From the IMG/VR virus record IMGVR_UViG_3300048691_000182, positions 1 through 64,000 of that record: a stretch of DNA of 64,000 nucleotides, one strand, 5' to 3'. The notes beneath the pieces are model-generated. The model worked only from the letters and a program-made list of their open reading frames with translations. It was not told the DNA's origin and did no database searches. Both the position numbers and the translations under genes were made by a program. Within the stretch, counting starts at the first letter, position 1. Each line of letters begins with the position of its first letter. This document shows, one piece after another, positions 1 through 53,442 of this stretch. Source of the DNA: a virus.

Positions 1-1230
1 ATAGCGTACCAACCAGCTATTACTAATTATGTTTCTATAGATTCTTTTAAGAAAACATGTAAATCTTTATTTGATAGTGCTCAAAATCAATTAGGGTTTA
101 TCGCTACTGCTCAACATCATTTTAGAAGAGCTTTGTTGGAAAACATGGTAGCGAGAACGTATTGTGATATTCGTTGCACTGTTGCTTTGTTTGAAGAAAA
201 TATAGAAACTTGGAAAATTAAAAATAGTATTCCAACAACTGTTTTTTCCAAAACAGAATACTTAGATATTTATAAACAGCTTTTTGAAAATACTACCGGG
301 TCTAGTCTCAATAGTAGTAAAGATTTACAAGATCTTCAAAACGCAATGGTTGGTTTATTTTCCCAGCTATCTAGTTACAGTGTACAATTCATAACCGAAG
401 TTAATAGCTCCAATATCAAGGTATTCAACTGGGGCGCCATTAGGTTAGGTGATGTAGATGCAGAAGCTGCTGGTGGATATTTATTACCAGACTTAATAGT
501 TAACTTAGAAAATGCTGATGCTAAATCTAGCTTTGAAACTGACACTGGATTAAAATCGCCAGTAATTGAATTAGGTGAGAAAAACCCCATTACCCAAGAA
601 GGTAAATACCATATTGCTGTTACAGCTCATCCTGCTGAGCAATCTATTATTTATACAAACACTATTTCAATAGGATCGTTAAATGGATTTACTTTTTACC
701 AAGACGAAAGCAAGAATCTAAGCGACGCTACAAGTTTTATTGGGTACGATGAAATATGGCGTAAGAAAGATTTACAGATTGGAGACATCCGTGATATTTA
801 TTGTGATTGCTTCCAACTACCAACGATAAAAGGTATTGACCTTAATACCGTTATTCTTGACGGTACTTTAGGTATCTTCAAATATTTAAAGATAAACGAT
901 CCAGTGTTGAAATCTTTTGTTTACGTTGATATGGCTGGAACTACTAATGCGTTTGTTAATATTACAGATGTTAAGGAAATTGAAGCGTTCAAATCTAACG
1001 CTGGTAACGGGGCTATTAATGCTTTTAAGCCTAATGCTGAAATTACTGACCTGGAAGTATTTAATTATAACGATATACCAAACAACGTTTATGTGTCAGA
1101 TGAACAAGTTTACTTCTTAAGTGAAGGATCGTATTTAGCTTATAATTTCGATATTGAAAATTACTACGAGTCTGACACAGGCATAGTTTTCTTGTCTGAC
1201 GACGATGAAACTTTTACTCCAGATTTATAA
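1..1230 (+). CDS. Virion structural protein, 5'-truncated (phiKZ gp130-like baseplate-region protein)
   Basis: Frame is open from base 1 (IAYQPAITNY...), so the 133 start is a window-edge artefact. QNAMVGLFSQLSSYSVQF motif and position upstream of the fibre slot and gp139-like gene (recalled synteny). Confidence 0.55.
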   Translation: MAYQPAITNYVSIDSFKKTCKSLFDSAQNQLGFIATAQHHFRRALLENMVARTYCDIRCTVALFEENIETWKIKNSIPTTVFSKTEYLDIYKQLFENTTGSSLNSSKDLQDLQNAMVGLFSQLSSYSVQFITEVNSSNIKVFNWGAIRLGDVDAEAAGGYLLPDLIVNLENADAKSSFETDTGLKSPVIELGEKNPITQEGKYHIAVTAHPAEQSIIYTNTISIGSLNGFTFYQDESKNLSDATSFIGYDEIWRKKDLQIGDIRDIYCDCFQLPTIKGIDLNTVILDGTLGIFKYLKINDPVLKSFVYVDMAGTTNAFVNITDVKEIEAFKSNAGNGAINAFKPNAEITDLEVFNYNDIPNNVYVSDEQVYFLSEGSYLAYNFDIENYYESDTGIVFLSDDDETFTPDL

Positions 1231-1247: not shown

Positions 1248-1895
1248 ATGTCTACTAAGATGCTTTCGGAAATACCTTTAGTTAATTCCTTAGCCCCTGT
1301 TAAAACACTTGTTGGAACTAATAGTAACGATAAAGATATTAACGTACCTTATAGTTTAATTAAAAGTTATATTGATACTGCTGTGGCAGCTGCTGGTGGA
1401 GGGTCTACTAATAGCAAGTTGCTGATTACTTTAACTTCAGCTATTCCTTTAAACCTAGGTAGTTATTATTACACTCCTAACGGGTTCTGGGATGTTGTGG
1501 AGGCTTTAGCCTCCTCGGATGCATCCTACGATACTATTAATTCCCAAATTTTAGTGAACACGCCAGGAATATATAAAGTTTCGCTTAGTGCTAAAATGTC
1601 AGCTTCTGGAATAGACGGATCTCCAGTTGGATGGCAAACTTCCAAAGAATTTAATCTCGGTACTTCTTTACCAGGACTACCCACCATACCACCTGGTATG
1701 GAGTCATCCCGGATAACAGCTAAAAGTGTTGTTAGTGATAGTGCTAAAAATTATTTTCAATGGTCAGATGAATATTTTATACAGGTAGCTAGCGCAGGTG
1801 ATGGTTTTATGCCTAGAATTTATTGGAATTCTTACGATAACCCAAATATGCATAGTAGTTTTTTAATGCTTGTGTGTGTTGAAAGAGTTAACTAA
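1248..1895 (+). CDS. Putative virion fibre/decoration protein A with C1q/BclA-CTD-like beta-sandwich
   Basis: RBS AAGGA. N-terminal STKMLSEIP...L resembles fibre-anchor motifs, followed by an AAAGGGS linker. YDTINSQILVNTPGIYKVSLS resembles the C1q/TNF-fold GxYxV strand. Paralog of 2588-3190. Confidence 0.5.
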   Translation: MSTKMLSEIPLVNSLAPVKTLVGTNSNDKDINVPYSLIKSYIDTAVAAAGGGSTNSKLLITLTSAIPLNLGSYYYTPNGFWDVVEALASSDASYDTINSQILVNTPGIYKVSLSAKMSASGIDGSPVGWQTSKEFNLGTSLPGLPTIPPGMESSRITAKSVVSDSAKNYFQWSDEYFIQVASAGDGFMPRIYWNSYDNPNMHSSFLMLVCVERVN

Positions 1896-1900
1896 GTTAT

Positions 1901-2578
1901 ATGGAATTAGCTGTAATAACTTTTACAAATAACAAAAGAGGCCGGTGGCTGGAAGAAACAAAACAAAGTGTTTATAAATTTCTTCCAGCCACCGCTGAGC
2001 ACTTAATTTTAAACTGCGAGAAACCAGAACACTTAGAGCCAATGAGATTGGAATGTGTTGGTATCGCCAAGTACATTACCTTTGTAGATGACGACGATAC
2101 AATAATTAAAGACAGTTTAAATACTTGTTTAGATTTATTAAATAAAACAAATTTTGGTGTTGCTTTTACTGATGAACAAAAAATAGACAGCGATTCAAAA
2201 ATTATTTTTCCTGATGAGAAAATAAGAACTGGTTTAACAACAAGATGCGTTGCTATGCATCCAAACATTGTTCACCATTTAGCAATGATAAGATCTGATG
2301 CTGTCCCTAAAGAGATTATTTCAGAGGCTTTAAAACTAGGCAGAGGGGCTGAATGGTTAATTAAGGCATCAGCAGGCCTAACAAATAAAGCTATTCATGT
2401 TAAGGATTTTGGTTATCAATGGCGGCAGCATGGGGATAATTTTCATAAAACAAAAGAATGGACAGAAAACTATAAAACAAAAATGAATGATTTAGTTTTA
2501 TGCTTATCTAAATATTCCAATTTTATTAATAGAATATTACCATTTTACAAAGATGGTAATATTCAAGGTTTGTATTAA
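1901..2578 (+). CDS. Glycosyltransferase, GT-A fold (GT2-like), paralog 1
   Basis: N-terminal LAVITFT strand; YITFVDDDD (DxD) motif; C-terminal YQWRQH motif. Confidence 0.85.
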   Translation: MELAVITFTNNKRGRWLEETKQSVYKFLPATAEHLILNCEKPEHLEPMRLECVGIAKYITFVDDDDTIIKDSLNTCLDLLNKTNFGVAFTDEQKIDSDSKIIFPDEKIRTGLTTRCVAMHPNIVHHLAMIRSDAVPKEIISEALKLGRGAEWLIKASAGLTNKAIHVKDFGYQWRQHGDNFHKTKEWTENYKTKMNDLVLCLSKYSNFINRILPFYKDGNIQGLY

Positions 2579-2587
2579 GGAAACGAA

Positions 2588-3190
2588 ATGGCAACAAAAC
2601 TTTCAGAAATTACACCGACTACTGATCTCAGCACCATTAAGAATGTTGTCTGTATTTCTAACACAGACAAAGACAGATTAATACCCTTTTCTAGTTTAGT
2701 AAGACCAAATCCAGCAGTCTTTGTTTTAAACGGCGATTCTTTAGAATCAATATCTTTTCAAGATTATAGAAATTGGACTGGTTTAGAAGTCGTTACATCT
2801 GAGATTGCTAATTGGGCAGCTTACGGTACTCGCATTACATTGCAACAAGTAGGTATATACCAGGTACATGTAAGAACGGTTATTGAGTGCTTTGATGATT
2901 ATGGTCTTCAGGCGGGTTGGCCAAATGACGGTGTAACACCGACAAGCACTAGAATAGGTCTTTTCGGTGCCATAACCGTTGGTGATTTACCTAGCTTTAG
3001 TAATCAGTTTCACGCAATCAACAACAACCCCACTAGTTATTTTCTTAATTTAGATAATACATTTATAATAGCTGCTGATTCAATTGGCGATTACTTTACG
3101 CCTGAAGTTAGTTGGTTTTATGGTACTAGTGGTTATAAATTTAAACCAGGAATGGTCATAACTGTTACGAAATTAAAAGACACTATTTAA
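2588..3190 (+). CDS. Putative virion fibre/decoration protein B with C1q/BclA-CTD-like domain
   Basis: RBS AAGGA. MATKLSEIT...SNTDKD..IPFS aligns with MSTKMLSEIP...NSNDKD..VPYS of 1248-1895. RITLQQVGIYQVHV strand. Confidence 0.5.
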   Translation: MATKLSEITPTTDLSTIKNVVCISNTDKDRLIPFSSLVRPNPAVFVLNGDSLESISFQDYRNWTGLEVVTSEIANWAAYGTRITLQQVGIYQVHVRTVIECFDDYGLQAGWPNDGVTPTSTRIGLFGAITVGDLPSFSNQFHAINNNPTSYFLNLDNTFIIAADSIGDYFTPEVSWFYGTSGYKFKPGMVITVTKLKDTI

Positions 3191-3194
3191 CATT

Positions 3195-3234
3195 TGTCAG
3201 AAAGCTTAGAACTTAAACTCTAAGCTTTCTGACA
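3195..3234. terminator. Hairpin, 16-bp perfect stem, 8-nt loop
   Basis: tgtcagaaagcttaga / tctaagctttctgaca immediately after the stop at 3190. Confidence 0.7.
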
Positions 3235-3261
3235 GTGCTATTACTTAAGAGGTATTAGTTT

Positions 3262-3921
3262 GTGAATCATGAGTTAACAGTAATTACGCTAACCAACGGT
3301 AAACGGTCCGAATGGTTAGAAAAATGTTGTGATAGCATTAATAGTTTTTTACCTAAAACAGCTAAGCACTTAATAGTTCAATGTAAAAACTATGAAGAAA
3401 CAGACACACAAAGATTAATAAGTTTAAATCATTCGAAATACATTACTTTTGTAGATGATGATGACTGGATAATAAACGATAGTTTAAATATTTGTTTAGA
3501 TTTGATTAAAAGTAAACAACTTGGTTTGGTTTTTACTGATGAAATTATAATAAACAAAAATGGCTTAGAACAACCACCACACGGCGGACGCGGTAAGTTA
3601 TTTTATTCAGATTTAATAAATAAAATAAGTACAGCCCACCAGTTAGCTATTTATAAAACTGATCCAGTGCTAGAGGAACTAAGATTAAACCCTTTAAATT
3701 GTAGTTCTAGAATAGAGTATTGGATGAAAGCTGTAGCTGGGTTACGTGAAGGTGCGCTACATGTGCCTATAAATGGTTATTGCTGGAGACATCATTCTGA
3801 TAATCGCAGCGCCAATATTGAGGAAATAAATCTATACAAAAATAAGTTCAGCATAATGAGAGACCATTTAACTAAAGCTTATGGTGATAATAAAGAGGTT
3901 ATTCCTAGACATGAATTCTGA
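3262..3921 (+). CDS. Glycosyltransferase, GT-A fold (GT2-like), paralog 2
   Basis: GTG start with GAGGT RBS; YITFVDDDD; YCWRHH. Confidence 0.85.
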   Translation: MNHELTVITLTNGKRSEWLEKCCDSINSFLPKTAKHLIVQCKNYEETDTQRLISLNHSKYITFVDDDDWIINDSLNICLDLIKSKQLGLVFTDEIIINKNGLEQPPHGGRGKLFYSDLINKISTAHQLAIYKTDPVLEELRLNPLNCSSRIEYWMKAVAGLREGALHVPINGYCWRHHSDNRSANIEEINLYKNKFSIMRDHLTKAYGDNKEVIPRHEF

Positions 3922-4573
3922 ACTAAAAGTATTTACATTTACTAATGGTAAAAGAAAAGAATGGTTAAATGAATGCATGCGGTCTGTTATTAAGTATCTT
4001 CCTTTAGCTGCCCTGCATGAGATAGTGTTTTGTTCCTCTTATCAACAAACAGACATAGAGAGAAATAATTGTCTTAGTAAATCTAGGTATATTGCTTTTG
4101 TAGATGACGACGATTATCTTTTAAATGACAGTTTAAATATTTGTTTAAAAACTATAAAACAAACTGGTGTTGGAGTAGTATTCACAGATGAGTTTTTAGT
4201 TACTGAAAAAGGGTTACCCCATCCTAGTAACCGAGAAATAAGATCAAATATTAAATACAGTGATTTATATTCCCAGCCTCTTGCTCTGCACCACTTAGCA
4301 ATAATAGACACTTTGGCTATTCCTGGTTTAATAAAGAATTCCATTGACCCTTTTATTGCAGGTAGCGACTGGTTAATAAAAGCAGGTGCGGCTCTAAATA
4401 AAGGTGCTATTCATATCCCTATTTATGGCTATGCATGGAGACAACATACAAACGGTAGATCTGTAATTAAATCAGAAGTTAAAATTTATAACGATAGATT
4501 TTCAGAATTAAAACAGATGCTTAAGCCTTATACTAATTTTAAAGATAAAGAAATACCCAGTATAAAGTTATAA
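3911..4573 (+). CDS. Glycosyltransferase, GT-A fold (GT2-like), paralog 3
   Basis: Start moved to ATG 3911 (MNSELKVFTFTNGKR aligns with the paralog N-termini); YIAFVDDDD; YAWRQH. Confidence 0.85.
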   Translation: MNSELKVFTFTNGKRKEWLNECMRSVIKYLPLAALHEIVFCSSYQQTDIERNNCLSKSRYIAFVDDDDYLLNDSLNICLKTIKQTGVGVVFTDEFLVTEKGLPHPSNREIRSNIKYSDLYSQPLALHHLAIIDTLAIPGLIKNSIDPFIAGSDWLIKAGAALNKGAIHIPIYGYAWRQHTNGRSVIKSEVKIYNDRFSELKQMLKPYTNFKDKEIPSIKL

Positions 4574-4632: not shown

Positions 4633-5475
4633 ATGGAAAATTTTACACGCACAGTTTACGGTAGTAATTTGCAGTCATCGCAGCTGTTGGGTATCCCTGT
4701 AGTCATTGCACCTAACACCACACTCAATCAGAAGTTTAATATTCAGGCAGCGACAGCCATTGCACCCACTGACGTACCCACTATGCGGTATGTAGCTGTT
4801 GGTAATGGTGGCCATAAACTGACTGTTGGTACAAGCGGTATTCCTTTGCCTGAACCCCTGCAACACAGCCCCACTGACGCCGCTTTGTTTAATCAGTTGC
4901 CTTTTGTGCTGCGTGAATTAACTAACGACATTCCAGCTAATGAGAGAGTTAAGTACGCCTTGCGTAGACAAGAGTCACATGGTGGAACTACATACATTGC
5001 TTACTACTTACGTAGATTGGATTATAGTGATGTAACTGCTTCTATGAAGTATAAGAGCACTACTAACGGGGTTACCACCACGACTGATTTTACACCAACC
5101 ACATCAAATTTAAACCCTACTCCTGTCGCTACTAGTTCCACAGGTGCTAATATTACAACTGGCGATTACGTTACTTCTAGCGGTAAGATTCCTTTCGAGT
5201 TAACTGAGGCCGACGTTACTGAACTAATGGAAGTGGCTAACATTATCTATGGCAGTAGCGCTTACGCTATTATTAGTGAAGTTGCATTAGTGTCAGCTGT
5301 TGACAAGGTAGTTACTGTGGCGTCTGCCAATAGCGGGTCTTTCAGTTTTACCGAGGCCATTGGTGCACAGGTTGTCTCATTTATGGAAGGTTTGTATGTA
5401 ATGAACTTTAATAATAAAGGTCTTGCTCTTACTCTTGAGGTGGGTGCTACTGAACCAATGTACATTCTGGCCTAA
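4633..5475 (+). CDS. Virion structural protein (phiKZ gp139-like)
   Basis: NTTLNQKFNI, YVAVGNGGH, YIAYYLRR and terminal VGATEP motifs recalled for this family; lies upstream of RuvC. Confidence 0.7.
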   Translation: MENFTRTVYGSNLQSSQLLGIPVVIAPNTTLNQKFNIQAATAIAPTDVPTMRYVAVGNGGHKLTVGTSGIPLPEPLQHSPTDAALFNQLPFVLRELTNDIPANERVKYALRRQESHGGTTYIAYYLRRLDYSDVTASMKYKSTTNGVTTTTDFTPTTSNLNPTPVATSSTGANITTGDYVTSSGKIPFELTEADVTELMEVANIIYGSSAYAIISEVALVSAVDKVVTVASANSGSFSFTEAIGAQVVSFMEGLYVMNFNNKGLALTLEVGATEPMYILA

Positions 5476-5477
5476 GC

Positions 5478-6047
5478 GTGCTTCATATTCCCGAAGGATC
5501 GAGTTCAACTAGTTGCATAGTTGGAATTGATCCTGGATCAGAAACTATGGGGGTGGCTATAATTCATTTTGATATAACCACTCTCAAAATAGTAAAATCT
5601 CATGTAAGTACTTTCACAGGTAGTAAACTTTATGCAATGCAGAACTGGAATGAACAAACCCAGTCTGCTAGATATGCAAGAATAAATGCACATAAAGAAA
5701 ATTTACTTAGGTTATTTCAAGTAAATAACCCTGTACAAATAGTAGCTGAGGATGGTTTCTTTAACCAAAGAAGACCAAATGCTTTTGCTGTTCTGATGGA
5801 AGTACAAATAGCTATTAGACAAGCTGTGTACGAATATAGCCACTGGAGAGAGTTATTTCTCATAGATCCACCCACTGTGAAAAAAGCAGTAGGTGTAGCT
5901 GGTAATGCTGATAAATTTAAAGTAAAAGATGGAGTTTGTGCTTTGTCTGATTTAAACTACGAAGGGTTAATTCCTTTGAATGATTTAGATGAACACTCCA
6001 TCGATGCTTTAGCGGTTGCGTATGCAAAGTTAAAGTCAATAACTTAA
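5478..6047 (+). CDS. ruvC: Holliday junction resolvase, RuvC-like
   Basis: IVGIDPG (catalytic D), VAEDGFF (E), PPTVKKAVG...ADK, HSIDALAVA (D). Confidence 0.85.
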   Translation: MLHIPEGSSSTSCIVGIDPGSETMGVAIIHFDITTLKIVKSHVSTFTGSKLYAMQNWNEQTQSARYARINAHKENLLRLFQVNNPVQIVAEDGFFNQRRPNAFAVLMEVQIAIRQAVYEYSHWRELFLIDPPTVKKAVGVAGNADKFKVKDGVCALSDLNYEGLIPLNDLDEHSIDALAVAYAKLKSIT

Positions 6048-6094: not shown

Positions 6095-6568
6095 ATGTTT
6101 ACATTACCTGCGCAAGTTATTAAAGCTCTGTCTTTTATTTTAAAGTCACTCCCCTACATTTTGATTATTTGTGTTACTATTTTTGTAGTTACAAAGCTAC
6201 AATCTTGTTCTGTTTTTGGTCCCACTAAAGTACAGTTAGAACAAGCTGTAGAGAAAAAAGATATTGTTATAAAAGAAGTACAAAACGCTAACAAAGATCT
6301 TGCTGATACAATAGTAGAAATAAAAAAATCTAACAATATAACTGTTGATGTAATTGATAAGTCTAACAAAAAAGAAAAATCAATAATAGCGAAAAAGATT
6401 CAAATAGAGAATAAAGTTAAAAAACAAATAGAAGAAGTTAAAGTAGTAAACCTTGATTCAACTATTAGGTCAGAAGAAATTAAACAAACAAAAATAAGTA
6501 CTATCCAAATAGAAAGTATTTGGGATACCTACGAGTCAACTATTAAACAAACAGAAAGTCAAGTATGA
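6095..6568 (+). CDS. Putative i-spanin (Rz-like)
   Basis: Start at ATG 6095 (the 6065 TTG lies inside the hairpin). N-terminal TM then a long coiled coil. ATGA overlap with a downstream lipoprotein. Confidence 0.6.
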   Translation: MFTLPAQVIKALSFILKSLPYILIICVTIFVVTKLQSCSVFGPTKVQLEQAVEKKDIVIKEVQNANKDLADTIVEIKKSNNITVDVIDKSNKKEKSIIAKKIQIENKVKKQIEEVKVVNLDSTIRSEEIKQTKISTIQIESIWDTYESTIKQTESQV

Positions 6569-6867
6569 AATTAGCCCTATTATTTATTATTGCTTTATTA
6601 ACAGGTTGCAGTACTTTAACTAAAGAAGTTATAGTTTATAAGAAGGAACCTGTTTTCATCAATACTCCTGTGCATTTAACCAGCAATTGTTTAATAACTC
6701 CACCCCCTAGTAAACAAGAATATCTATTAGCATCTATGCAGAAAAGGGAAGAATACTTAGCTACTTATGTTCGTAATTTAATTACTGATCTAGGTGTTTG
6801 TAATTCTAAATTAGCAGATATCAGAACTTGGAATAAAGAACAAGAGATAGTGTTTAAACCCAAATAG
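6565..6867 (+). CDS. Putative o-spanin (Rz1-like lipoprotein)
   Basis: Signal peptide with lipobox LLTGC; Pro-rich CLITPPP; further Cys in LGVCNSKL..IR.W. Confidence 0.7.
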   Translation: MKLALLFIIALLTGCSTLTKEVIVYKKEPVFINTPVHLTSNCLITPPPSKQEYLLASMQKREEYLATYVRNLITDLGVCNSKLADIRTWNKEQEIVFKPK

Positions 6868-7998: not shown

Positions 7999-8048
7999 CA
8001 TACCCCCTACCCTGGAAGCTTTTAGTGGCTTCCAGGGTAGGGGGTATG
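7999..8048. terminator. Bidirectional hairpin, 21-bp perfect stem
   Basis: cataccccctaccctggaagc / gcttccagggtagggggtatg between convergent genes. Confidence 0.8.
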
Positions 8049-8053
8049 TAAGT

Positions 8054-9295
8054 TTAAAAATCTTTACCTATTTCTAGCAAATAACCTTGCGAGTTACTAG
8101 CAAACATTTCAGGTAAGTCTGAATCATTGATAATGTTTAAAAAACTCTCGGGCTGAGTAGCGTTAAGCTTATTACGTTGATAACTATTCTCTACGTTGAC
8201 AGCCCATTGGCCATCTTCAAAAACAGACCAATACTCAGCTGTTCTTCCGTGACCGACAAACATAGGGTAGTTAGGTTCAGTATAAGCAATCATCATACCA
8301 GGTCTTGCTGAACTTCTCAAAGGTATTCTATTTGTAAATAATGATTCAGTGTTTACAATACAGAAAAACGATTGCGGGAGAGTCAGATATTTGGTAAGAG
8401 TCTCGTCTGAATAAAGTTCGCTTAACTTTGTAGCCGAAGGATTTACAGTATTAACAGGTAATCCTAGAGCGGATAAATCTAAGTATTCTTTGGACTCGAA
8501 ATATCTTTCAACAAAAGGTAGCTTCATAATGTCTATTGCAAAAACATCATCACCTGTCTGCCAAAATACACCCGACTCAGGAAATACTAAATAACCACCT
8601 AAAACTAATATGACAGTTTTACCTAGTGTTGGCTGTGCAAGTTTGAGATAAATTCTTTTCTTTAAATTAGAATCAAGAGCTTGTTTGAAAATCATTGATT
8701 CAGTAATTGGTACAGACTCGATTGTCCCAATAGGTAAGAAACTTAAAACTCCTATTTGGTTTTGCTTCGACTGAAGCATAGATTTTGCACCATCTACAAC
8801 GTAAGCTGCCGTTCCGTCGAAATCAGTTTTATGGTAATATCCATTAACAGATACTAAACAGTTGTTGTAAAACACTTCCATGTCAGTAAGTGGATTAGAC
8901 TTGGTTAGTTTCAAACTAGTTCTATCAGCTACTGGTAATATGCTTGAGTCTCCTACTCCTATTTTAACAGGCTCTACTTTATAACCTGTTCTGAATGCAT
9001 CTCTATAAACTGCAAACTTAGGTTTTAAAACAGGTGGAATAGAAACAGTTGTTAAAGCTGTATTACCTAAACTTGTCAATAAGGTTGAGAAACTAGATGG
9101 GAGAGAAGAGTATTCTAATCTTAAAGTTTCAAAATCAATTGTAATATTGTTTTCCAGAAAACTATTACTAAGTGTAATAAACATTTTTCTGTATAGACTG
9201 AATAGTTGATTTACAGGTACGTTAGAAATATCAACAGTGCTCCATCTAGCACCAGCTGATTTCTTCACACCTATAGCTGTAACTAAATTGTACAT
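8054..9295 (-). CDS. Virion structural protein (phiKZ gp143-like)
   Basis: 413 aa; NCLVSVNGYYH and ILVLGGYL motifs; divergent from the gp145-like gene (recalled synteny). Confidence 0.6.
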   Translation of the reverse strand: MYNLVTAIGVKKSAGARWSTVDISNVPVNQLFSLYRKMFITLSNSFLENNITIDFETLRLEYSSLPSSFSTLLTSLGNTALTTVSIPPVLKPKFAVYRDAFRTGYKVEPVKIGVGDSSILPVADRTSLKLTKSNPLTDMEVFYNNCLVSVNGYYHKTDFDGTAAYVVDGAKSMLQSKQNQIGVLSFLPIGTIESVPITESMIFKQALDSNLKKRIYLKLAQPTLGKTVILVLGGYLVFPESGVFWQTGDDVFAIDIMKLPFVERYFESKEYLDLSALGLPVNTVNPSATKLSELYSDETLTKYLTLPQSFFCIVNTESLFTNRIPLRSSARPGMMIAYTEPNYPMFVGHGRTAEYWSVFEDGQWAVNVENSYQRNKLNATQPESFLNIINDSDLPEMFASNSQGYLLEIGKDF

Positions 9296-9459: not shown

Positions 9460-12400
9460 ATGCCAACAAGTATAATCTATCCGTTTGACCCCACGGGTAG
9501 AGCCGCAACTAACTTAATTGCGAACGAACAACATGTAGTTACTAATAACAACTACAAAAATTATTATTTTATTGTACCTAACCTAGGACCTTTCTTTGCC
9601 GAATCAATTGTAGTTTCACACAAAGTAAATGGTAACACAGTACTATTAACAGAAAATGTTGATTATTATCCTGTGCTTCCTTTTATTGGTGCTACTCGTT
9701 CTATTGGGATGCCTGTATTTGGTGGCATTAGTTTTACTAACCTTAGCATTTCTGGTATAGTTACAGTAACCTACCAAACACTTGGTGGGGATTGGACTTA
9801 TGATGATGCTACTGTATTAGAATCTATCGCTAACCAAAGTTATAACCCTAGTTTTGCCACTTGGGAACAAGTTACTGGTTTACCAACACAGTTTCCTGTT
9901 GTTAACCATGAGTGGAATTTGGTTGACATGGTTGGGGAGACCGAACTGATAGAAAGCATAGTTTCTTTGGAGCAAGCAATTCTATCAAGACCTGTTGCAG
10001 TAGATGTCCCTACTACCAAAGCATCTATTGGTTTAGGTAATGTTGAGAACTACCCACCAGCTACTGCGTTAGAAGCTATTACTGGTACTTCAACCCAGCG
10101 TGTTATTACACCAGCTACGTTGAAGGCTGTGCTCAATCTTATTGATACGGGTGCTTCTAACTCCGACTTAACAGCTTTGACGCAAGCTATTTCTGCCACG
10201 AGTGACGGCTTAAACGTTACTACCAATGCTTTATCAGCGCACACTGGTAACACCGGTAATCCACATAACACTACCGCAGCCCAGGTGGGGTTAGGTAATG
10301 TAGAGAACATTGGAGTGGTGACAGATGCTGAACTTACAGCAAATACTGCTGTAAGAAAAGTAGTTACTTTTGATCAACTGTTAAAAACATCTACGGGCGC
10401 AGGTCAGTACAAAGTTAATATTGACTTACTGGGTGCGTCACCTTCAAGATTCTATCCAGTTTACTGGTTTGGACAATCTTTAATTAGAGCCGGTGGTGTT
10501 ATTCCTGAAATTACCATTTACAGAAAAACAGACGATACAACTGCGTCGGCTAGTGGTGCTATGTCGCTATCTGTTGAACAAGTTGGTAGTATCTGGGACG
10601 GTTATACCCAGACTTATTCCAAAGTTAAATTCTTTTCACAGACAGGTCCTACTAAGTTTATTAAATGTTTTAAACATGGCATTAAGTCTATTTATAGAAA
10701 CATGAATAAAAATGGTACAGGGCTTGCTAATTACCCAGGTACTGTTTCTGGTACTGTTGATTTAGCTGGTCCTAAGTCTGGACTGTACTTGCGTGGTGGA
10801 TTTCAGTATGAGTTTGTTACTAATAACTTAGTTATTAAGAATTCAGTGGAGTACATTAATAACGACATAGAAAAAGAAATTTACTACGCTGTGCAATCTA
10901 ACTTCGGTTTTGAAGGAGGGTGGTATGCTAGATCTTACAGTGAGAACGATTTATTCTTAGAGAATTTCTACACAAGTATGAGTAGAGATGATGCCTATTT
11001 CTCCTGGAATGGCCAACCATCTGTCTATACATTTGACGCTACAGCTAGCGCTACTTTTACTTGGGCTAGTTCTAATGTGACTATTCTTGGTGGCGCTACC
11101 CCAACGATTACTGGCACCCTCACGCTGTTACCTGGGTCAGCTAATCTTAGAGCTGTAACTACGTTTACAAAGCAGGCTAGTAACGTAGTGGTTACAGTAA
11201 ATACATTATTTACATCCAGTGCAACAGGAACTTATGCACTATCTCTTACTCCAGCATTAAATGCTGCAAGTGGCGATGTGTTTAACTATAGCACCGTGGT
11301 TACACGTGTTGATAACGGCGATACTGTTGTTACTAGCTCTACTGCCGTTGTAAGTGCCGCTTCTCCTGTTCTGAATACCACAGGTACTGCTTCAGTCTAC
11401 CTGAACCAAACAGCTACAGTTACACTGAACGTTGCCAGCTTTACACCCAATACGGCTCTCGCCTTGAAGCTTTTCTTGGTAAATCCTGCCGGTGTTAAGA
11501 GCGCTTGGGTTGATGCAAATAATACCCAATATGTTTCTAACGTTACCACCAATGGTGCCGGTGCAGCCACGACAACTGTTAACTATGTAAATAACGGTGC
11601 TCTTGTTTCTGGTGTGTGGAGTATTGCTTTTGAGATACTAAGTAATGGAACTACTTATACAAGCTCTAACCAGGCTGCTATAACTATTGTTCCTACAAGC
11701 GTAACTGTTAGTGGTACAGGCACAGCTGCAACTGGAACAGCTTTCTCTATTGCATATTCAGTAGCTGGATTCGAACCTAATGTTGGTGTATCTGGAACAC
11801 CTTATCTTGTTAACCCAAGTGGCACGCGTGTAAGTTTTGCTTCCGCCACAGCAGCAACAGGCGTAGTTAACATTACACCTATGGCTAACGGTACTGGGTC
11901 AGGTAATATCACGGGTTCATTATTAACCACGGCAGCAATTGGTACGTGGCGTGTTGGTCTTGATGTGGTGGCAGGTATTCCGGGTGGCACTAAGACTGTT
12001 TCTTCAGTTACTTTGGGCACATTGAACGTTATTGCTGTTAACGCAAGTACTGGTTCTAGCCTAACTGCTAACAGAACAGTTATGACCTCTGGTGAGGCTA
12101 TTACATACACAGGCACATGGGCTGGTTTAACGCAAGGTACTAACTTGTACCGTATTGAATTTGGCACTACGTTGAACAATGCTGCTGTTGTAACAGAATC
12201 TATCGCTGTAACACCTAACGGTAATGGTGCCTTTACTATTAGTAGAGCTGTAACTGTTGGGGCCAATAACACAGCTACCTTGATTTACGCTTACGCTAAA
12301 CTGATTAGAATAAGTGATAATGCAGTGCTTGTTGTGAATGATGCACCTACTGCTGCTATTCTTGCACCAGGACCAACAGGTAGAACTTGGGCTCCTGATA

Positions 12401-13455
12401 ATGCATGGGTTGTCCCTGGCAGCAATACTACGTTTAACGGTGCTGTTACAGGTCTGTTTGGTGCTGGACGTTACACATACCGTATTGAAGAGAGCATGGA
12501 GCCTGGTGGTGGCCAGACTGTTGTTACAACAGGTGCTATCAATCCTGATGCCAATGGTAACTGGAATATTTCTAGAGCAACCACTATTGACAATTCCACA
12601 GCAGGGGATTATTTCCGCTCTAAGTTGATGATTATCCGTGTCTCTGATGGTGCTACTTTAAACGATACTGGATTCCAGACTGTTAATATCAGCTACCCCG
12701 TTCCTACTGTGTCTTTTGTTAAGACAGGAGGAGCTAACCCAGTACAACCTGGACAAGGTCAGAACTACAGAGTTAATATTTCTAATATCCACGGTAGTAA
12801 TAAATACCATATTCGCACGTACTTCACTGTTAACGGTGGTGCTTGGCAGAGTGCTGGTGGCGAGAACATTACAAGTGTTTACACCCACATGGACAGAGGT
12901 TATACTGTACCACTTAATGCTCCATCCGGTACATTTAGAGCTTATGCTGAAGTGGTTAGAAATTCTGACAATGCTGTTGTTGCACCTGTTATGGAAATCG
13001 CTAGCACTATCCAACGTATTCCCACAGTTACGTCGTTTACAAAGGTAGATGACAGTGGTCTTTATGGCGGTACTTATGGAATCGTTTACCTAGATGGTTC
13101 CATGACACCTAATAGATTCCTTGCTTCGGTAACTGGGTTAGAACCAAGTACTTCCTACACAGCAGGCATATATCGCAGAACTGGTAATGCAAATGACGGC
13201 TATGATGGTTTTGCGTATCTTTATGTTACACCTTATACAACTGATGCTAACGGTAACGTTAACTTAAATATTAACAATACTAATGGTGGTTATTACGGGG
13301 ACTTTAGCACCTTTATATTTATAACTAGTGGGTCCACTACACAAGCTCAAATAAATGCTGGTCAGGGCTTTAACGTTATTACTAGACAAGGATTCTTAAA
13401 CGTCACTACCTATTATGAGGCATCGAACGGCGGTGGTGACCATGATTCTCAATAA
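9460..13455 (+). CDS. Large tail fibre protein (phiKZ gp145-like N-terminus) with tandem Ig-like repeats
   Basis: YPFDPTG N-terminus; NPHNTTAAQVGLGNVEN fibre motif; T/S/A/G/V-rich repeated C-terminal 800 aa; RBS AAGGAG. Confidence 0.75.
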   Translation: MPTSIIYPFDPTGRAATNLIANEQHVVTNNNYKNYYFIVPNLGPFFAESIVVSHKVNGNTVLLTENVDYYPVLPFIGATRSIGMPVFGGISFTNLSISGIVTVTYQTLGGDWTYDDATVLESIANQSYNPSFATWEQVTGLPTQFPVVNHEWNLVDMVGETELIESIVSLEQAILSRPVAVDVPTTKASIGLGNVENYPPATALEAITGTSTQRVITPATLKAVLNLIDTGASNSDLTALTQAISATSDGLNVTTNALSAHTGNTGNPHNTTAAQVGLGNVENIGVVTDAELTANTAVRKVVTFDQLLKTSTGAGQYKVNIDLLGASPSRFYPVYWFGQSLIRAGGVIPEITIYRKTDDTTASASGAMSLSVEQVGSIWDGYTQTYSKVKFFSQTGPTKFIKCFKHGIKSIYRNMNKNGTGLANYPGTVSGTVDLAGPKSGLYLRGGFQYEFVTNNLVIKNSVEYINNDIEKEIYYAVQSNFGFEGGWYARSYSENDLFLENFYTSMSRDDAYFSWNGQPSVYTFDATASATFTWASSNVTILGGATPTITGTLTLLPGSANLRAVTTFTKQASNVVVTVNTLFTSSATGTYALSLTPALNAASGDVFNYSTVVTRVDNGDTVVTSSTAVVSAASPVLNTTGTASVYLNQTATVTLNVASFTPNTALALKLFLVNPAGVKSAWVDANNTQYVSNVTTNGAGAATTTVNYVNNGALVSGVWSIAFEILSNGTTYTSSNQAAITIVPTSVTVSGTGTAATGTAFSIAYSVAGFEPNVGVSGTPYLVNPSGTRVSFASATAATGVVNITPMANGTGSGNITGSLLTTAAIGTWRVGLDVVAGIPGGTKTVSSVTLGTLNVIAVNASTGSSLTANRTVMTSGEAITYTGTWAGLTQGTNLYRIEFGTTLNNAAVVTESIAVTPNGNGAFTISRAVTVGANNTATLIYAYAKLIRISDNAVLVVNDAPTAAILAPGPTGRTWAPDNAWVVPGSNTTFNGAVTGLFGAGRYTYRIEESMEPGGGQTVVTTGAINPDANGNWNISRATTIDNSTAGDYFRSKLMIIRVSDGATLNDTGFQTVNISYPVPTVSFVKTGGANPVQPGQGQNYRVNISNIHGSNKYHIRTYFTVNGGAWQSAGGENITSVYTHMDRGYTVPLNAPSGTFRAYAEVVRNSDNAVVAPVMEIASTIQRIPTVTSFTKVDDSGLYGGTYGIVYLDGSMTPNRFLASVTGLEPSTSYTAGIYRRTGNANDGYDGFAYLYVTPYTTDANGNVNLNINNTNGGYYGDFSTFIFITSGSTTQAQINAGQGFNVITRQGFLNVTTYYEASNGGGDHDSQ

Positions 13456-13469
13456 ACAAGGTTAACATA

Positions 13470-13829
13470 ATGAGCACAGCAAATCCTTTAATTAAAATAG
13501 AAAGACTAGACGCCGTTACCAAGGGCGACGTTAAAAGTCTTTTTTATGTTATTGAATACAGTAATCTTTCTGATAAAACTTTATACGAATCCATAGTTTT
13601 ATTAGCTTTTAGTGATAAAAAAACTATTAAGTGGTCTAAGTTTAGATTTAAAGATAGAAATACTTTTATTGCTTCTGATTTTATTGAACCTTTACCAGAA
13701 GCAAGTCAGTATAAAGTACTAATTGAGTTATCTAACAAAGAAACAGGTGAGATTCTTTTAACGGAAGAAAGAATTGTTACTAACGATATTGAAATTTTAA
13801 CGCCTGCGGAGGTTACCAGCAATGCCTAA
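13470..13829 (+). CDS. Hypothetical protein between fibre genes (possible fibre accessory/chaperone)
   Basis: 119 aa, beta-rich; coupled to the next gene by an 8-nt overlap. Confidence 0.5.
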   Translation: MSTANPLIKIERLDAVTKGDVKSLFYVIEYSNLSDKTLYESIVLLAFSDKKTIKWSKFRFKDRNTFIASDFIEPLPEASQYKVLIELSNKETGEILLTEERIVTNDIEILTPAEVTSNA

Positions 13830-15777
13830 TGTTATTCGTTACGGTTTAGACACAACGGGTTTAAACTCTGACAACTTTGTCAGTGGGGAAACCCATGTGT
13901 TAGCTAACTTTCCTCTACGCACCGTAGTACCTACATACGGTGCTTTCTATACTGAATCGGTTAAAGTCTACGATGCTAACGCTAATAGGCTCTTAACCAG
14001 AGGTACGCACTACATCTGCACTGAACTAGCTGTAACTCCTAGTGAGTTGTACGGTAAAGAAATTTGCTACCTTGTTCTTATTACAGATGCCACGGTAAGC
14101 GCTAACGTTCGCTTAGATTACCAGGCTCTTGGTGGTCTTTACGGTGCTAGCACTGAAGCTATTTTGTCTGTTTATAATGCTTTCCTTAATAGCTCTTCAA
14201 ATGCTGCATGGAACAACATTCTAAATAAACCAGCTGAGTTTAACCCCTCAGCTCACCTGCACGACATTGGCGATGTTTATGGTTTTGAGTATGTTGTTAA
14301 TGCACTGGAGCGTATTAAAGAAGCTATTACTATTAGTGCTACTCCTGCTTTCCAAAGAGTACTGGGGTACATAGACGATCAAATATCGTCTATGCAAAAC
14401 ACAGTCACTATAGCTAGTAATGCTTTAAGTGACCATAGTACCGACGCTAGCAATCCTCATCAGACTAACAAAGCTCAAATTGGTTTAGCTAATGTTAGTA
14501 ACTTAAGAACAGCTAGCACTACTGACATCAACAAGGTTATTGCCAATGTAGCTGCTATTACTGACGACGCTTATGTTACTGTGGCTGGTTTATTATTCTT
14601 TAATAAGAATAATACCTCTGCCAGTACTGATAGTTTAGCTGCTGCTAAAGCTTACGCTGATAGTAAAGATAGTCAACAACTAGGTGTTGTTTATCAGTCA
14701 ATCATTGATAATGTTGCAGCTGTAAATAATGCCTGGAGAGCTGGGGATAATACTACTATTGTTAGTGCTAGAAATTATACTGACGGTTTAGTAGCTAGTA
14801 CTAAAACTGATACGGTTAACCTTATACATGCTAAGGGCATCAGATACCCTAACCATAACGGCATTGCTCTACCTGCTGCCACTAACGTTATTCTTTCAGC
14901 TAACATGGGTAAGTGGCACGAAGTGCAATTAGATGGTTCCGTGACCACTTTACCAGCTTTGGCTAGTGTTGACATAGGTGCTACTGTTACAATTACGTGT
15001 TGCATCACTAAAGCAGCTATCCAGACATTTAGCACTACTGAGTTAATTTCTATAGCTGGATCTACATATAGAACTTCTGGTATTCGTTTAGGTGAAACCA
15101 TTACATTTACTTCTAATGGCCAATGGTGGTACATTACTAGTATTGGTAGCCCTAGTTTCATGTTAACACCTGTTAACTCCATTGTCATGTTTGACGGTGA
15201 TGTTGGATTGTTACCAAGTAATTGGGCTGTCTGTGACGGCACCAGAGGTACGCCTAACCTTAGAGATAAGTTTGTTGTTGGTGCTGGTGGTAGATGGCCT
15301 TTGGGAACTACTGGTGGTACTGCTAACGCTGTTAGTGTTAACCACAACCACGCAGCCACTTCTACTTTTATTGGTAATGCTTTAGGTGGACATAGTCACG
15401 GTGTTAATGATCCAACTCACCATCACAACGTGCAGGATAATGGACATGCACACGGCGTTAATGATCCTGGTCATAGTCACGTTATTGAGGCGCCTGTACG
15501 CATAAATGATCAAGATAGAGGTGGTGGCGGATCATTATTTTCGCTAGATAGTTCTCAAAATACTGCGACCAACCACGTTGGTACAGGTATTTCTATTCAG
15601 GGATCTCTAGCTAATATTTCTATTGCAGGTAACCCCACCGGTGTTAGTATTCAAGCAAGTGCTGCTGGTACGCCAACAGGTACAGTGAGTACTTCTATTG
15701 CGCAAGACGGTGTAAGTGGTATTGACCAAAACTTACCACCCTACTACGCGTTGGTTTATATTAAGAGACTTTATTAA
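13822..15777 (+). CDS. Tail fibre protein (phiKZ gp146-like) with tail-collar domain and His-rich tip
   Basis: N-terminus paralogous to 9460 ORF; PVNSIVMF..PSNWAVCDGTRGTPNLRDKFVVGAG collar; five HxH motifs; terminal NLPPYYALVYIKR. Confidence 0.8.
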   Translation: MPNVIRYGLDTTGLNSDNFVSGETHVLANFPLRTVVPTYGAFYTESVKVYDANANRLLTRGTHYICTELAVTPSELYGKEICYLVLITDATVSANVRLDYQALGGLYGASTEAILSVYNAFLNSSSNAAWNNILNKPAEFNPSAHLHDIGDVYGFEYVVNALERIKEAITISATPAFQRVLGYIDDQISSMQNTVTIASNALSDHSTDASNPHQTNKAQIGLANVSNLRTASTTDINKVIANVAAITDDAYVTVAGLLFFNKNNTSASTDSLAAAKAYADSKDSQQLGVVYQSIIDNVAAVNNAWRAGDNTTIVSARNYTDGLVASTKTDTVNLIHAKGIRYPNHNGIALPAATNVILSANMGKWHEVQLDGSVTTLPALASVDIGATVTITCCITKAAIQTFSTTELISIAGSTYRTSGIRLGETITFTSNGQWWYITSIGSPSFMLTPVNSIVMFDGDVGLLPSNWAVCDGTRGTPNLRDKFVVGAGGRWPLGTTGGTANAVSVNHNHAATSTFIGNALGGHSHGVNDPTHHHNVQDNGHAHGVNDPGHSHVIEAPVRINDQDRGGGGSLFSLDSSQNTATNHVGTGISIQGSLANISIAGNPTGVSIQASAAGTPTGTVSTSIAQDGVSGIDQNLPPYYALVYIKRLY

Positions 15778-19631: not shown

Positions 19632-19670
19632 CTCTACACCAGAATACCGTAATAGTATTCTGGTGTAGAG
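19632..19670. terminator. Bidirectional hairpin, 16-bp perfect stem
   Basis: ctctacaccagaatac / gtattctggtgtagag. Confidence 0.8.
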
Positions 19671-24262: not shown

Positions 24263-24301
24263 CTCCTATACCGAATAGATTTTATCTATTCGGTATAGGA
24301 G
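24263..24301. terminator. Bidirectional hairpin, 18-bp perfect stem, 3-nt loop
   Basis: ctcctataccgaatagat / atctattcggtataggag. Confidence 0.8.
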
Positions 24302-28251: not shown

Positions 28252-28997
28252 TAAATTCATCGGATACTAAACAAGGTGTTTATATTGATCTTGATGCTTT
28301 ACTTGATACTAGACTAGGCACCATTATTGATAATTTTGGGCAGGATAAAGCTATTAGTATTTTATCTAACGGATACTTTACTAGGAAATCAAATACATTT
28401 GAAGGCATAACTTTAACTGAATTTGAAAACCTATACGCACTGCGGACAAAGAAAGTTTTATTAAATTCCATGGTTACTAAAGTAATGAGATTACTTGTTG
28501 ATCTTGTTGCAACCATGAACAAACAAGCCATTACCTCCCCTCTGCATAGCGGCCCTAAAGTTTATATTAATATTTATCCATATAAACTAAATGAGTTAGA
28601 AGTAAACACAATACTTAAATGTGTTGTTTTAAGTTGTAACAAAGCTTGCGATGTGGTGATGATTAATACAGCGCCCGAAAACTTAACTCCCCAGTATTGT
28701 AAAAATACTTTTGCTGTTATGTTTAAGTACGACTATGGTGAGTGGTTTGAGAAACAAGCAGCTAATTTTGATAAAGCTAGATGCCCTGGTTTGACCTGTT
28801 TTGTTCCTGCCATGTATTTTGTCAGAGAACCTACCAAAGAAGAGTTAGAGAAGTTTGTCAAAGAAGACATGCATCCTTTATCAGCTATTGAAATGGCATC
28901 TTCTGTTTTTATTGACTTGAAGCTTTATGAAACAGAATATTTCTGTGCCAATATAGCTAATGACATCATGACTTTAAAGTCTTATAAAAATGCATAA
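28248..28997 (+). CDS. Conserved hypothetical protein (phiKZ gp147-like)
   Basis: VYIDLDALLDTRLG and INIYPYKL motifs. Confidence 0.6.
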   Translation: MINSSDTKQGVYIDLDALLDTRLGTIIDNFGQDKAISILSNGYFTRKSNTFEGITLTEFENLYALRTKKVLLNSMVTKVMRLLVDLVATMNKQAITSPLHSGPKVYINIYPYKLNELEVNTILKCVVLSCNKACDVVMINTAPENLTPQYCKNTFAVMFKYDYGEWFEKQAANFDKARCPGLTCFVPAMYFVREPTKEELEKFVKEDMHPLSAIEMASSVFIDLKLYETEYFCANIANDIMTLKSYKNA

Positions 28998-29042
28998 TTA
29001 CTACAGTCAAGGAAGCTTAGTTGCTTCCTTGACTGTAGTAAT
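28997..29042. terminator. Bidirectional hairpin, 20-bp perfect stem
   Basis: attactacagtcaaggaagc / gcttccttgactgtagtaat. Confidence 0.8.
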
Positions 29043-32183: not shown

Positions 32184-33284
32184 ATGGGTATTAATACTCT
32201 GGCTAGTACCACATTTTCTTCTGGTCCTGACGACGAACAAGTAGTAGCGGATATTTATGACATTACAGAACCAGGTGTTATTAATAGCATTGATGCTGAT
32301 GATGCCTACAATAATGAAATTGCTAATAGGGATGTAAGTAGTTTTAGTGGTGGTGATCTAGATGCTATTCAAAATAAAAAATTAGCGGCTAAAGATGCGT
32401 TAGATGCACAACTAACAACGCGTTTGTCTAATGATGCGTCTAGCGCTTTAACACAATTAAAAAGCTTGTCTGATGTTGTTAAGAAAAATATTACCATAAA
32501 TCCAATACTAGGTAGAGTAATAACTGCTACGTTAGGAACTAAAAAAGCCAACATTTTAACACAGCATTTAAATGATGCTAAAGCAGTTACTAGACTGATA
32601 GATAACTTTGCTAAAGGCAACGGTGGTTATGGTGTTGGATTTACAGACAAGGGCGCTATAAGTGGGCTTATAGCCGGGTTAGCTACAGAGGGAAGTAGAC
32701 TTGGTCTCCCTAGTACTTTTACCAAACTTGCGGGTGCTGTTACTAGTAAAGGTCCTTTAATGGCAGCTGCCTCTATGCTGCTACCTAAAGCAGCTAAGTC
32801 TGGTGATTTAAACCTTTTAAGAGATGTGGCTGATTCGGTTATAAAAGACGATATTTATAAAATAATGCCCAGCGTAATAAGTGAAAATATAAAAAATTTT
32901 AGTTTACCGAAACCACTTAGCCTTAAGGACGCTGTATCTAAGTACGATCTTTTAAATAGTACTTTTAGTGATATTAAAACTGATTGGAATAAAGTAAGTA
33001 GAAACGGGGTTAGTACTTTATCTGGGTTAAAGCTAGGGAGTAACCCAATGATTCGCAGTTTATTAAGTTCTAAGGTTATGTCACAAACTGAAGAGGTTGT
33101 AGAGGCAGATTATGGGTTTGGTATTAATAGTAATGCTCATTCTCAAGATGAGAAATTTACCTTACCTGCCGCTTATTCCTTAACAGATGTCACCGGTGAG
33201 TTAGAAAAATCTTTTCCCAGTATAAATGTTAAAGATGATTTATTTGTAAAAGAAAAACCAGTATTTGATCCTCAGTATATTTAA
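32184..33284 (+). CDS. Hypothetical, probable virion (tail/baseplate) protein
   Basis: GAGGTG RBS; 366 aa; convergent with the gp182-like gene. Confidence 0.5.
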   Translation: MGINTLASTTFSSGPDDEQVVADIYDITEPGVINSIDADDAYNNEIANRDVSSFSGGDLDAIQNKKLAAKDALDAQLTTRLSNDASSALTQLKSLSDVVKKNITINPILGRVITATLGTKKANILTQHLNDAKAVTRLIDNFAKGNGGYGVGFTDKGAISGLIAGLATEGSRLGLPSTFTKLAGAVTSKGPLMAAASMLLPKAAKSGDLNLLRDVADSVIKDDIYKIMPSVISENIKNFSLPKPLSLKDAVSKYDLLNSTFSDIKTDWNKVSRNGVSTLSGLKLGSNPMIRSLLSSKVMSQTEEVVEADYGFGINSNAHSQDEKFTLPAAYSLTDVTGELEKSFPSINVKDDLFVKEKPVFDPQYI

Positions 33285-33328
33285 ACAGCATAATAGCCAG
33301 GAATTTATCCTGGCTATTATGCTGTTTA
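33282..33328. terminator. Bidirectional hairpin, 21-bp perfect stem
   Basis: taaacagcataatagccagga / tcctggctattatgctgttta. Confidence 0.8.
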
Positions 33329-51881: not shown

Positions 51882-51925
51882 TACTCACAGTACAGGAACT
51901 TATTATAGTTCCTGTACTGTGAGTA
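51882..51925 (+). terminator. Hairpin, 19-bp perfect stem
   Basis: tactcacagtacaggaact / agttcctgtactgtgagta. Confidence 0.8.
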
Positions 51926-53400: not shown

Positions 53401-53442
53401 TACACACTACCTAGAAGATTAATTTCTTCTAGGTAGTGTGTA
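53401..53442. terminator. Hairpin, 18-bp perfect stem between convergent genes
   Basis: tacacactacctagaaga / tcttctaggtagtgtgta. Confidence 0.8.

Follow-up and report, generated by a model that had tools for sequence, protein, structure and literature searches.

The window analysed here, the first 64 kb of the 96,279-base IMG/VR viral contig IMGVR_UViG_3300048691_000182, carries at positions 1248-4573 a cassette of five genes in which two putative fibre-tip proteins (knobs A and B) are interspersed with three predicted glycosyltransferases (GT1, GT2, and GT3). Comparison with other viral contigs revealed that a knob gene followed by a glycosyltransferase (GT) gene is a conserved, translationally coupled, and co-diverging two-gene module found in many (roughly twenty) unrelated, uncultured phages. 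The record has an estimated CheckV completeness of 36%, and the contig is thus a fragment of a jumbo phage genome. An earlier, model-generated reading of the letters alone (the sequence-only reading) had regarded the cassette as a candidate virion glycosylation system, in which the GTs would build a glycan on the neighbouring surface proteins or on a Ser/Thr-rich fibre encoded at 9460. Its observation is confirmed. Its interpretation is supported in part, and can be sharpened towards the adjacent knobs as partners of the GTs.

All five genes lie on the plus strand. Knob A (1248-1895; an open reading frame (ORF) of 215 amino acids (aa)) is followed by GT1 (1901-2578; 225 aa), knob B (2588-3190; 200 aa), a hairpin (3194-3235), GT2 (3262-3921; 219 aa), and GT3 (3881-4573; 230 aa), exactly in the order and with the ORF positions and gaps described previously. 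The gaps measure 5 nt between A and GT1, 9 nt between GT1 and B, and 71 nt between B and GT2. GT2 starts with a GTG preceded by AAGAGG. The same motif precedes an ATG at 3911, which is the more probable start of GT3 and leaves an overlap of 11 nt with the end of GT2. No membrane-spanning hydrophobic stretch was found in the five cassette proteins (highest 19-residue Kyte-Doolittle mean, 1.48), and no further GT was found in the 96 kb of the record.

The knob-glycosyltransferase module in other phages

Further loci were sought in IMG/VR and JGI/ENA metagenome contigs, and all ORFs were scored with hidden Markov models (HMMs) of the GT and knob families. An alignment of 80 GT sequences was too diverse for this search, and three sub-alignments were used instead. 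The resulting survey set comprises 27 non-identical GT family members at E<1e-20, among them GT3 as the second GT in a row behind knob B. In 17 of the 27, the same-strand gene directly upstream ends with a knob domain. A further, weaker case beyond these 17 is L005, where the upstream gene encodes a 541-aa collagen-repeat tail fibre and the knob domain is matched at E 3e-5. Four loci (L074, L076, L077, and L078) entered the survey only once the knob HMM was complete; their knobs score E 2e-25 to 5e-13 and are therefore independent detections. The products of the upstream genes vary in length, with bare knobs at 205-253 aa and tail fibres at 372-1233 aa (including 1072 and 1233 aa); the long fibres have PHROG tail-fibre matches and carry the knob at the C-terminus. 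In most cases the GT start codon overlaps the knob stop codon by 1 nt or follows it within 3 nt, which implies coupled translation. In two loci (L005:6374-7999 and L076:3315-4997) collagen-like Gly-X-Y repeats directly precede the TNF-like knob, and a GT follows each.

A scan seeded with the knob only retrieved new contigs (L111-L115), each with a GT immediately downstream. Several relatives share the N-terminal segment alone, and these carry neither knob nor GT. It is thus the knob domain that the GT accompanies, irrespective of phage lineage or anchor segment. The other fibre types of these phages lack a GT. The loci span a GC content of 34-69% and contigs of ~45 kb to ~180 kb, and the partner fold remains constant throughout. 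One of them, L004, shares no gene with the window except the module (BLASTP 1e-4).

Virion structural genes (fibre, head, sheath, or other) are among the examined neighbours of the GT in 24 of the 27 members; for L077, L078, and L019, part of the neighbourhood was covered. GT homologs scattered apart from structural genes, which would have spoken against a virion function, are therefore not the picture obtained. Where the neighbour is not a knob gene, the GT follows the gene for the major head protein (L056), lies between a deoxynucleoside monophosphate (dNMP) kinase and the tail sheath (L020, L053, and L055; L019 shows the sheath side only), precedes the tail sheath (L081), lies between a phrog_437 virion protein and an internal virion protein (L042 and L021), or follows paralogous virion/tail-fibre proteins (L035). 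In the sub-clade of L020 (908-4869), L053, and L055, the GT gene overlaps the upstream dNMP kinase gene and precedes the tail sheath gene. This context could reflect a different acceptor.

Knob and GT sequences diverge in step: their pairwise identities correlate with a Mantel r of 0.73 (p 2e-4), and with one of 0.51 (p 6e-4) after removal of a close cluster. The resolved clades agree between the two trees. Knobs A, B, and that of L004 form a clade with support 94/96, and GT1, GT2, GT3, and the GTs of L004 and L012 form one with 98/96; L010, L016, L111, and L115 form a clade in both trees. The knobs have diverged at roughly twice the rate of the GTs (median end branch, 1.6 versus 0.9). Within the window the GT topology is (GT1,(GT2,GT3)), with support 94/88 and 96/90, which indicates that the module was duplicated in the lineage of this phage and that one GT was then duplicated again. 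Taken as a conserved, coupled, and co-diverging pair, the module points to the adjacent knobs as partners of the GTs. This bears out one half of the earlier proposal; for its other half, the 1331-aa Ser/Thr-rich fibre at 9460, nothing comparable was found.

The knob proteins

Knob A consists of a ~50-aa N-terminal anchor segment followed by a predicted TNF/C1q/BclA-like jelly-roll knob (residues ~51-215). Knob B is a paralog with the same N-terminal motif and a knob of the same family; the two proteins are 26% identical (BLASTP E 6e-9), and the knob family profile matches B at E 1e-49. Neither protein has a Pfam match at E 1 or better, including PF00386 (C1q) and PF18573 (BclA_C). An AlphaFold2 model of knob A has a mean predicted local distance difference test (pLDDT) score of 59 overall and of ~75 in the beta core, and displays the ten strands expected of a jelly-roll. 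When residues 51-215 of this model were aligned structurally with VIA-align, TNF/C1q-like structures were matched at Z 10.5-10.9, with a root mean square deviation of 3.0-3.5 A over 126-143 residues. They include TNF ligands (4-1BBL), the C-terminal domains of BclA and F-BclA, PRD1 P5, and the phi812 spike knob. Among phage tail proteins, the short tail fibre carbohydrate-binding domain (CBD) of cyanophage A-1(L) and a tail protein of cyanophage A4 were matched. Look-alikes of the knob in the ESM Atlas are viral proteins of ~207-212 aa, in clusters that carry C1q (21% of members) or BclA_C (12%). The C1q-type fold guessed earlier for A and B is thus borne out, by structure alignment of the A model, as a C1q/TNF/BclA-type fold. 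With their shared short N-terminal segment and TNF/C1q-type knob, A and B are most readily seen as small fibre-tip proteins. In an alignment of 16 knob sequences, G107 is the sole invariant column.

The glycosyltransferases

GT1, GT2, and GT3 are 38-43% identical to each other, GT2 and GT3 being sister paralogs. They share 55 invariant columns, including F61-V62-D63-D64-D65-D66 and Y172-x-W174-R175-x-H177, the FVDDDD and YxWRxH motifs that the sequence-only reading had noted. With PF00535 they score 15-19 bits, under the gathering threshold of 23.3 bits, and so fall outside Pfam membership; among the 80 family members, 36 reach E 1e-3 or lower with this model, the best of them 1e-6. By these profile scores the family is a divergent GT2 subfamily. 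When the three GTs were combined into a profile, the GT2 domain of the E. coli K4 chondroitin polymerase (K4CP) was retrieved (E 0.002), with the DDDD of the GTs aligned to the DSDD stretch of K4CP at the DxD position and their HH to the HH of K4CP. An AlphaFold2 model of GT1, built from the 80-sequence alignment, reaches pLDDT 97. Foldseek assigns it a GT-A/GT2 fold, with K4CP, SpsA, TarS, TarP, RmlT, and GalNAc-T as matches (E 5e-9 to 1e-6, TMq 0.5-0.67). GT1 is thus confidently predicted to be a stand-alone, cytoplasmic, GT2-like enzyme with a GT-A fold, and it contains the DxD motif; enzyme activity is predicted. The earlier assignment of all three proteins to GT2 holds in the sense of divergent GT2/GT-A glycosyltransferases, on the combined evidence of predicted fold, Foldseek, and profile alignment.

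In a full HMMER scan of 1.84 billion cluster representatives, the GTs have 814 relatives, of which 179 reach E<1e-10 and 77 reach E<1e-30; nearly all are stand-alone proteins of 200-235 aa. The matches listed in a separate search of bacterial genomes include at least two weak relatives. D63, D65, and H125 are invariant across 80 homologues, and T7, T9, S23, H34, D64, D66, T90, H126, W152, G171, Y172, and W174 are conserved in at least 90%. Among predicted viral structures, the GT1 model is best matched by an uncharacterized protein of 209 aa from an uncultured phage. The glycosyltransferase of Che8 (Q855A2) is one generic GT-A match among many, and tblastn with GT1, GT3, P0025, and P0030 against 50,697 GenBank phage records gave no mycobacteriophage match that would indicate homology to the Che8 or Corndog glycosyltransferases. 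The only NCBIfam matches, to TuaG and PglI, are sub-threshold, and a PADLOC scan found no defence family. No fibre-GT fusion was found, the long matches being unrelated multi-GT2 proteins; the search was crowded, which makes this weak evidence. The conserved C-terminal half of the GTs was considered as a strong sign of a shared acceptor, and this argument was dropped because the HH motif also occurs in K4CP.

Two side observations concern GT genes. Within the coding sequence of GT1, 43 nt past the start codon, lies a perfect 16-bp inverted repeat with a 20-nt loop (1943-1958 and 1979-1994), which encodes RWLEETKQSVYKFLPA. It is unlikely to occur by chance in 6 kb and may be a translational or RNA-stability element. 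On another viral contig (L064:1746-5753), a 1335-aa ORF has five PF00535 GT2 matches in a row (E 3e-72) and is followed by another GT2-containing ORF. Its predicted product is a giant multi-glycosyltransferase.

Proposed function and alternatives

The cassette may be understood as two copies of a mobile two-gene module, A-GT1 and B-GT2-GT3, the second with its enzyme duplicated. The first gene of the module would encode a small trimeric-type TNF/C1q-like knob that serves as the distal tail-fibre or receptor-binding tip, the second a minimal, soluble, metal-dependent glycosyltransferase of the GT2 family with GT-A fold and DxD motif. Late in infection, the GT would be made together with its knob through translational coupling. 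In the cytoplasm, and ahead of the attachment of the fibre to the baseplate, it would use a host nucleoside diphosphate (NDP)-sugar to glycosylate the knob or the linker next to it. GT2 and GT3, which stand in tandem, might extend the glycan or add a second sugar. That a cytoplasmic GT2 enzyme glycosylates its partner knob or fibre before assembly is, in our judgement, just short of an even prospect. We put forward tentatively, and at less than even probability, the wider proposal that a horizontally mobile, self-contained module of a knob and a dedicated GT lets diverse phages, including a phiKZ-like jumbo phage, glycosylate their own receptor-binding tips, each knob paralog being served by its own co-evolving enzyme. 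We infer the knob as acceptor, the formation of a glycan as such, and a purpose for it; shielding, masking, or adhesion roles are conjecture.

Several observations weigh against this proposal. The terminator-like hairpin between B and GT2 means that this pair is uncoupled in the window. The model of knob A is only moderately confident, and the 16-sequence knob alignment contains no invariant Ser, Thr, Asn, or Tyr as a candidate acceptor. The HH and C-terminal motifs of the GTs, which recur in K4CP, are features of GT2 enzymes and uninformative on the acceptor. One locus (L118:4001-4642) serves as a natural GT-less comparator: its 213-aa product combines a divergent knob (E 3e-11) with the N-terminal segment found in knobs of the L016 type, and no GT lies downstream. 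No NTP_transferase or NAD-epimerase Pfam match, which would point to genes for a donor sugar, was found across the 96-kb record (~36% of the genome). The sequence-only reading had noted the absence of sugar-nucleotide genes from the window, and this absence now extends to the whole record. The GT family, like the knob family, is also essentially absent from the 50,697 GenBank phage records (8-kb megablast, and tblastn with the four queries given above). The sole match in a cultured phage, gp169 of Arthrobacter phage Atuin, has an E value of 1e-3 and a non-structural context.

Adjacency and co-divergence, finally, are equally expected if the GT were matched to the host receptor of the knob. In this alternative, which we consider unlikely but the most serious one, the GT modifies a host envelope glycan that the neighbouring knob recognizes, such as a lipopolysaccharide core or O-unit, teichoic acid, or a capsule precursor at the cytoplasmic face. 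Superinfection would thereby be blocked or progeny kept off debris, and knob and GT would travel together since their specificities must match. The llp gene of phage T5, which adjoins the gene for pb5, sets a precedent for a receptor modifier beside a receptor-binding protein. The nearest solved structures of the GTs are polysaccharide and teichoic-acid GT2 enzymes, including TarS, the prophage-encoded TarP, and RmlT; the weak NCBIfam matches to TuaG and PglI point the same way, as does the fact that TNF-like phage knobs, for example the short-fibre CBD of A-1(L), bind carbohydrate. However, the GT tracks a single protein fold across hosts with a GC content of 34-69%, whose surface glycans are necessarily very diverse, and other fibre types in the same phages lack a GT. 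The stop/start overlap with a late structural gene sets timing and stoichiometry that suit action on the fibre rather than an early remodelling of the envelope. Moreover, some members lie beside genes for the major head protein, the tail sheath, or an internal virion protein, where a receptor rationale is missing, and the GT has no membrane anchor. For the first of these reasons, the lack of GTs at other fibres, the coupled late expression, and the head, sheath, and internal-protein neighbours, we favour glycosylation of the phage's own knob over modification of the receptor.

The same head and sheath neighbourhoods would fit a broader target range, in which the GTs decorate the 1331-aa Ser/Thr-rich fibre at 9460, the sheath, or the capsid, and the adjacency to the knob reflects shared late expression and joint transfer. 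This is improbable in our view. The GT of L056 follows the major head protein gene, those of L020, L055, and L081 precede the tail sheath gene, and the 1331-aa fibre has stretches of 30-33% Ser+Thr. The mycobacteriophage precedent targets capsid and tail tube (PMC12363180). General virion glycosylation leaves unexplained, however, why 17 of the 27 members are tied to a knob with coupled translation and co-divergence, and why the module enters phages that are otherwise unrelated, as L004 and the present phage are.

Slightly more doubtful still is a role of the GT-fold protein as a chaperone of the knob or as a bound accessory tip protein that transfers no sugar to it. The slot directly downstream of a fibre gene is the usual position of classical chaperones of the Tfa/gp38 type, and the GT genes occupy this slot, with coupled translation and co-divergence with the knob. 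The invariant DxD-type aspartates and His125 in 80 homologues suggest, by contrast, that catalysis has been retained, and TNF/C1q knobs generally trimerize without a dedicated chaperone. Glycosylation of hydroxymethylated bases in the phage DNA, as a means of evading restriction, is highly improbable: GT-A enzymes can accept nucleosides (for example AvpGT with Ara-A, 9jn3) and the GT gene of the L020, L053, and L055 sub-clade overlaps a dNMP kinase gene, but no thymidylate-synthase-like hydroxymethylase was found in the 96 kb, all contexts examined are structural, and the link to the knob would have no rationale.

Genomic setting

The gene to the left of the cassette (1-1230, plus strand) encodes the C-terminal part of a virion protein related to gp128 of phiKZ, gp213 of 201phi2-1, and gp79 of Burkholderia phage FLC9 (phrog_3222, E 8e-32, residues 5-212; tblastn). 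The gene to the right (4633-5475, plus strand) encodes a virion protein related to phiKZ gp139, 201phi2-1 gp224, and FLC9 gp78 (53% identity; phrog_3315, E 6e-98). The 201phi2-1 homologues of both are annotated as present in virions by mass spectrometry. Within the same virion gene block follow a homologue of the RuvC-like resolvase, phiKZ gp140 (5478-6047), and a small ORF with Rz-like spanin matches at E 1e-8 (6565-6867). A homologue of phiKZ gp130 and 201phi2-1 gp215 lies on the minus strand (8054-9295), and paralogs of the fibre-like set phiKZ gp131-135 / 201phi2-1 gp216-220 occupy 9460-13455 and 13822-15777. With its gp128-, gp139-, gp140-, and gp130-like genes and the gp131-135-type paralogs, the phage is by predicted gene content phiKZ-like, and the cassette lies between virion genes, both as the sequence-only reading had supposed. 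Its further statement that this slot carries variable fibre paralogs in such phages is only loosely right: the gp131-135-type paralogs are found at 9460-15777, beyond the gp130 homologue, and the slot itself is empty in FLC9. In the gp128-like protein of the left flank, relatives are matched over the first 150-240 residues only, and the last 200-260 residues have neither a PHROG match nor an FLC9 counterpart. The end of this protein, immediately before the cassette, may be one more distal domain that was swapped.

FLC9 is the nearest cultured phage, with 35-53% identity in the flanking and neighbouring virion proteins of the window. In its genome gp79 (gp128-like) and gp78 (gp139-like) are adjacent, 47 nt apart. 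The 3.3-kb cassette is thus an insertion between two conserved virion genes. Close relatives of the phage were not found in IMG/VR, and neither knob nor GT was found in cultured phiKZ-like phages.

The hairpin in the B-GT2 spacer (3194-3235, plus strand) is a perfect stem of 16-17 bp with no run of U behind it. Its folding energy is -30.1 kcal/mol (z -6.8), and none of 200 shuffled sequences was equally stable. More than twelve equally long perfect hairpins occur just past gene ends across the window. Perfect hairpins of 16-23 bp, most of which lack a U-run, directly follow genes or separate convergent ones at 7999-8048, 19632-19670, 24263-24301, 28997-29042, and 33282-33328, and further ones of the class at 51882-51925, 53401-53442, 58397-58432, and 62755-62793. 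The class probably represents transcript-end or stability elements of the phage. As a member of this window-wide class, the hairpin at 3194-3235 is most simply read as such an element, with nothing specific to the cassette.

Relation to known systems

Capsid and tail-tube proteins of mycobacteriophages are substrates of phage-encoded GTs (Freeman et al. 2023, cited through PMC12363180 and PMC12619734). The GTs of Che8, Corndog, and Myrna resemble the window GTs as soluble phage enzymes that are thought or shown to decorate their own structural proteins in the cytoplasm. They also have GT genes in or next to structural genes, as in 24 of the 27 members here, and the Che8 enzyme has the GT-A fold in common with the window GTs, but a sequence relationship was not detected by tblastn. 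Their targets are the C-termini of capsid and tail-tube subunits, whereas fibre knobs are the proposed target here; a dedicated gene-by-gene pairing of GT and substrate gene is not described for them, and the hosts are actinobacteria and the phages not jumbo phages. The jumbo phage XacN1 encodes two GTs and has at least two virion glycoproteins, for which virion glycosylation was suggested (PMC5852040). GT genes near tail or capsid genes of archaeal viruses have led to the same speculation (PMC11706807).

The BclA and F-BclA exosporium and ENA tip proteins of Bacillus end in a trimeric C1q/TNF-like knob with the fold modelled for knob A (Z ~10.4-10.5 to 1wck, 2r6q, and 9h38). Their domain order, collagen-like repeats followed by the knob, recurs in the upstream fibres of L005 and L076. 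BclA is a glycoprotein whose glycans sit on the collagen-like region. It is, however, a bacterial spore protein and not a phage fibre, and A and B have no Pfam BclA_C or C1q match. SpsA, K4CP, TarS, prophage TarP, and RmlT have the GT-A fold and DxD in common with the window GTs, and the HH motif aligns with that of K4CP. In contrast to these enzymes, the window family is smaller (~215 aa), lacks an oligomerization or acceptor domain, stays under the Pfam gathering score, and is encoded only in viral contigs beside virion genes. The TNF-like viral fibre knobs of A-1(L) (8ke9), the cyanophage A4 tail (9k09), PRD1 P5, the Sf6 needle knob, and the phi812 spike knob represent the same distal jelly-roll knob. 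To our knowledge, none of them has been reported with a paired glycosyltransferase gene, and a literature search for such a gene beside these five knobs found none. A full-text search likewise found no GT paired gene-for-gene with a TNF/C1q-like fibre knob and no such system in phiKZ-like phages. With its gp128-, gp139-, gp140-, gp130-, and gp131-135-type homologues, the setting of the cassette corresponds to the baseplate/tail gene block of phiKZ-like (Chimalliviridae-type) phages, but the cultured phiKZ-like phages in the collection lack knob and GT, and FLC9 has the flanking genes side by side. A phage GT2 enzyme in a structural module is thus already known; what is new is the dedicated, mobile, and co-diverging pairing of knob and GT, with a predicted chemistry.

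Implications

The module measures ~1.3 kb and has so far been found in uncultured phages only. If its enzyme instead masks the host receptor, it would be a new form of linked cassette for a receptor-binding protein and a receptor modifier, which would also be of interest. If the proposed glycosylation of the knob is true, the module would offer a compact two-gene cassette for site-specific protein glycosylation. It would also be the first gene pair to encode a phage receptor-binding protein together with the enzyme that modifies it post-translationally, and the phiKZ-like jumbo phage group would have its first virion glycosylation system. Receptor-binding tips set the host range and are the main target of neutralizing antibodies and of engineering. 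Were knobs routinely glycosylated, recombinant knobs made without the enzyme might misbehave, and predictions of host range from sequence only would miss a determinant.

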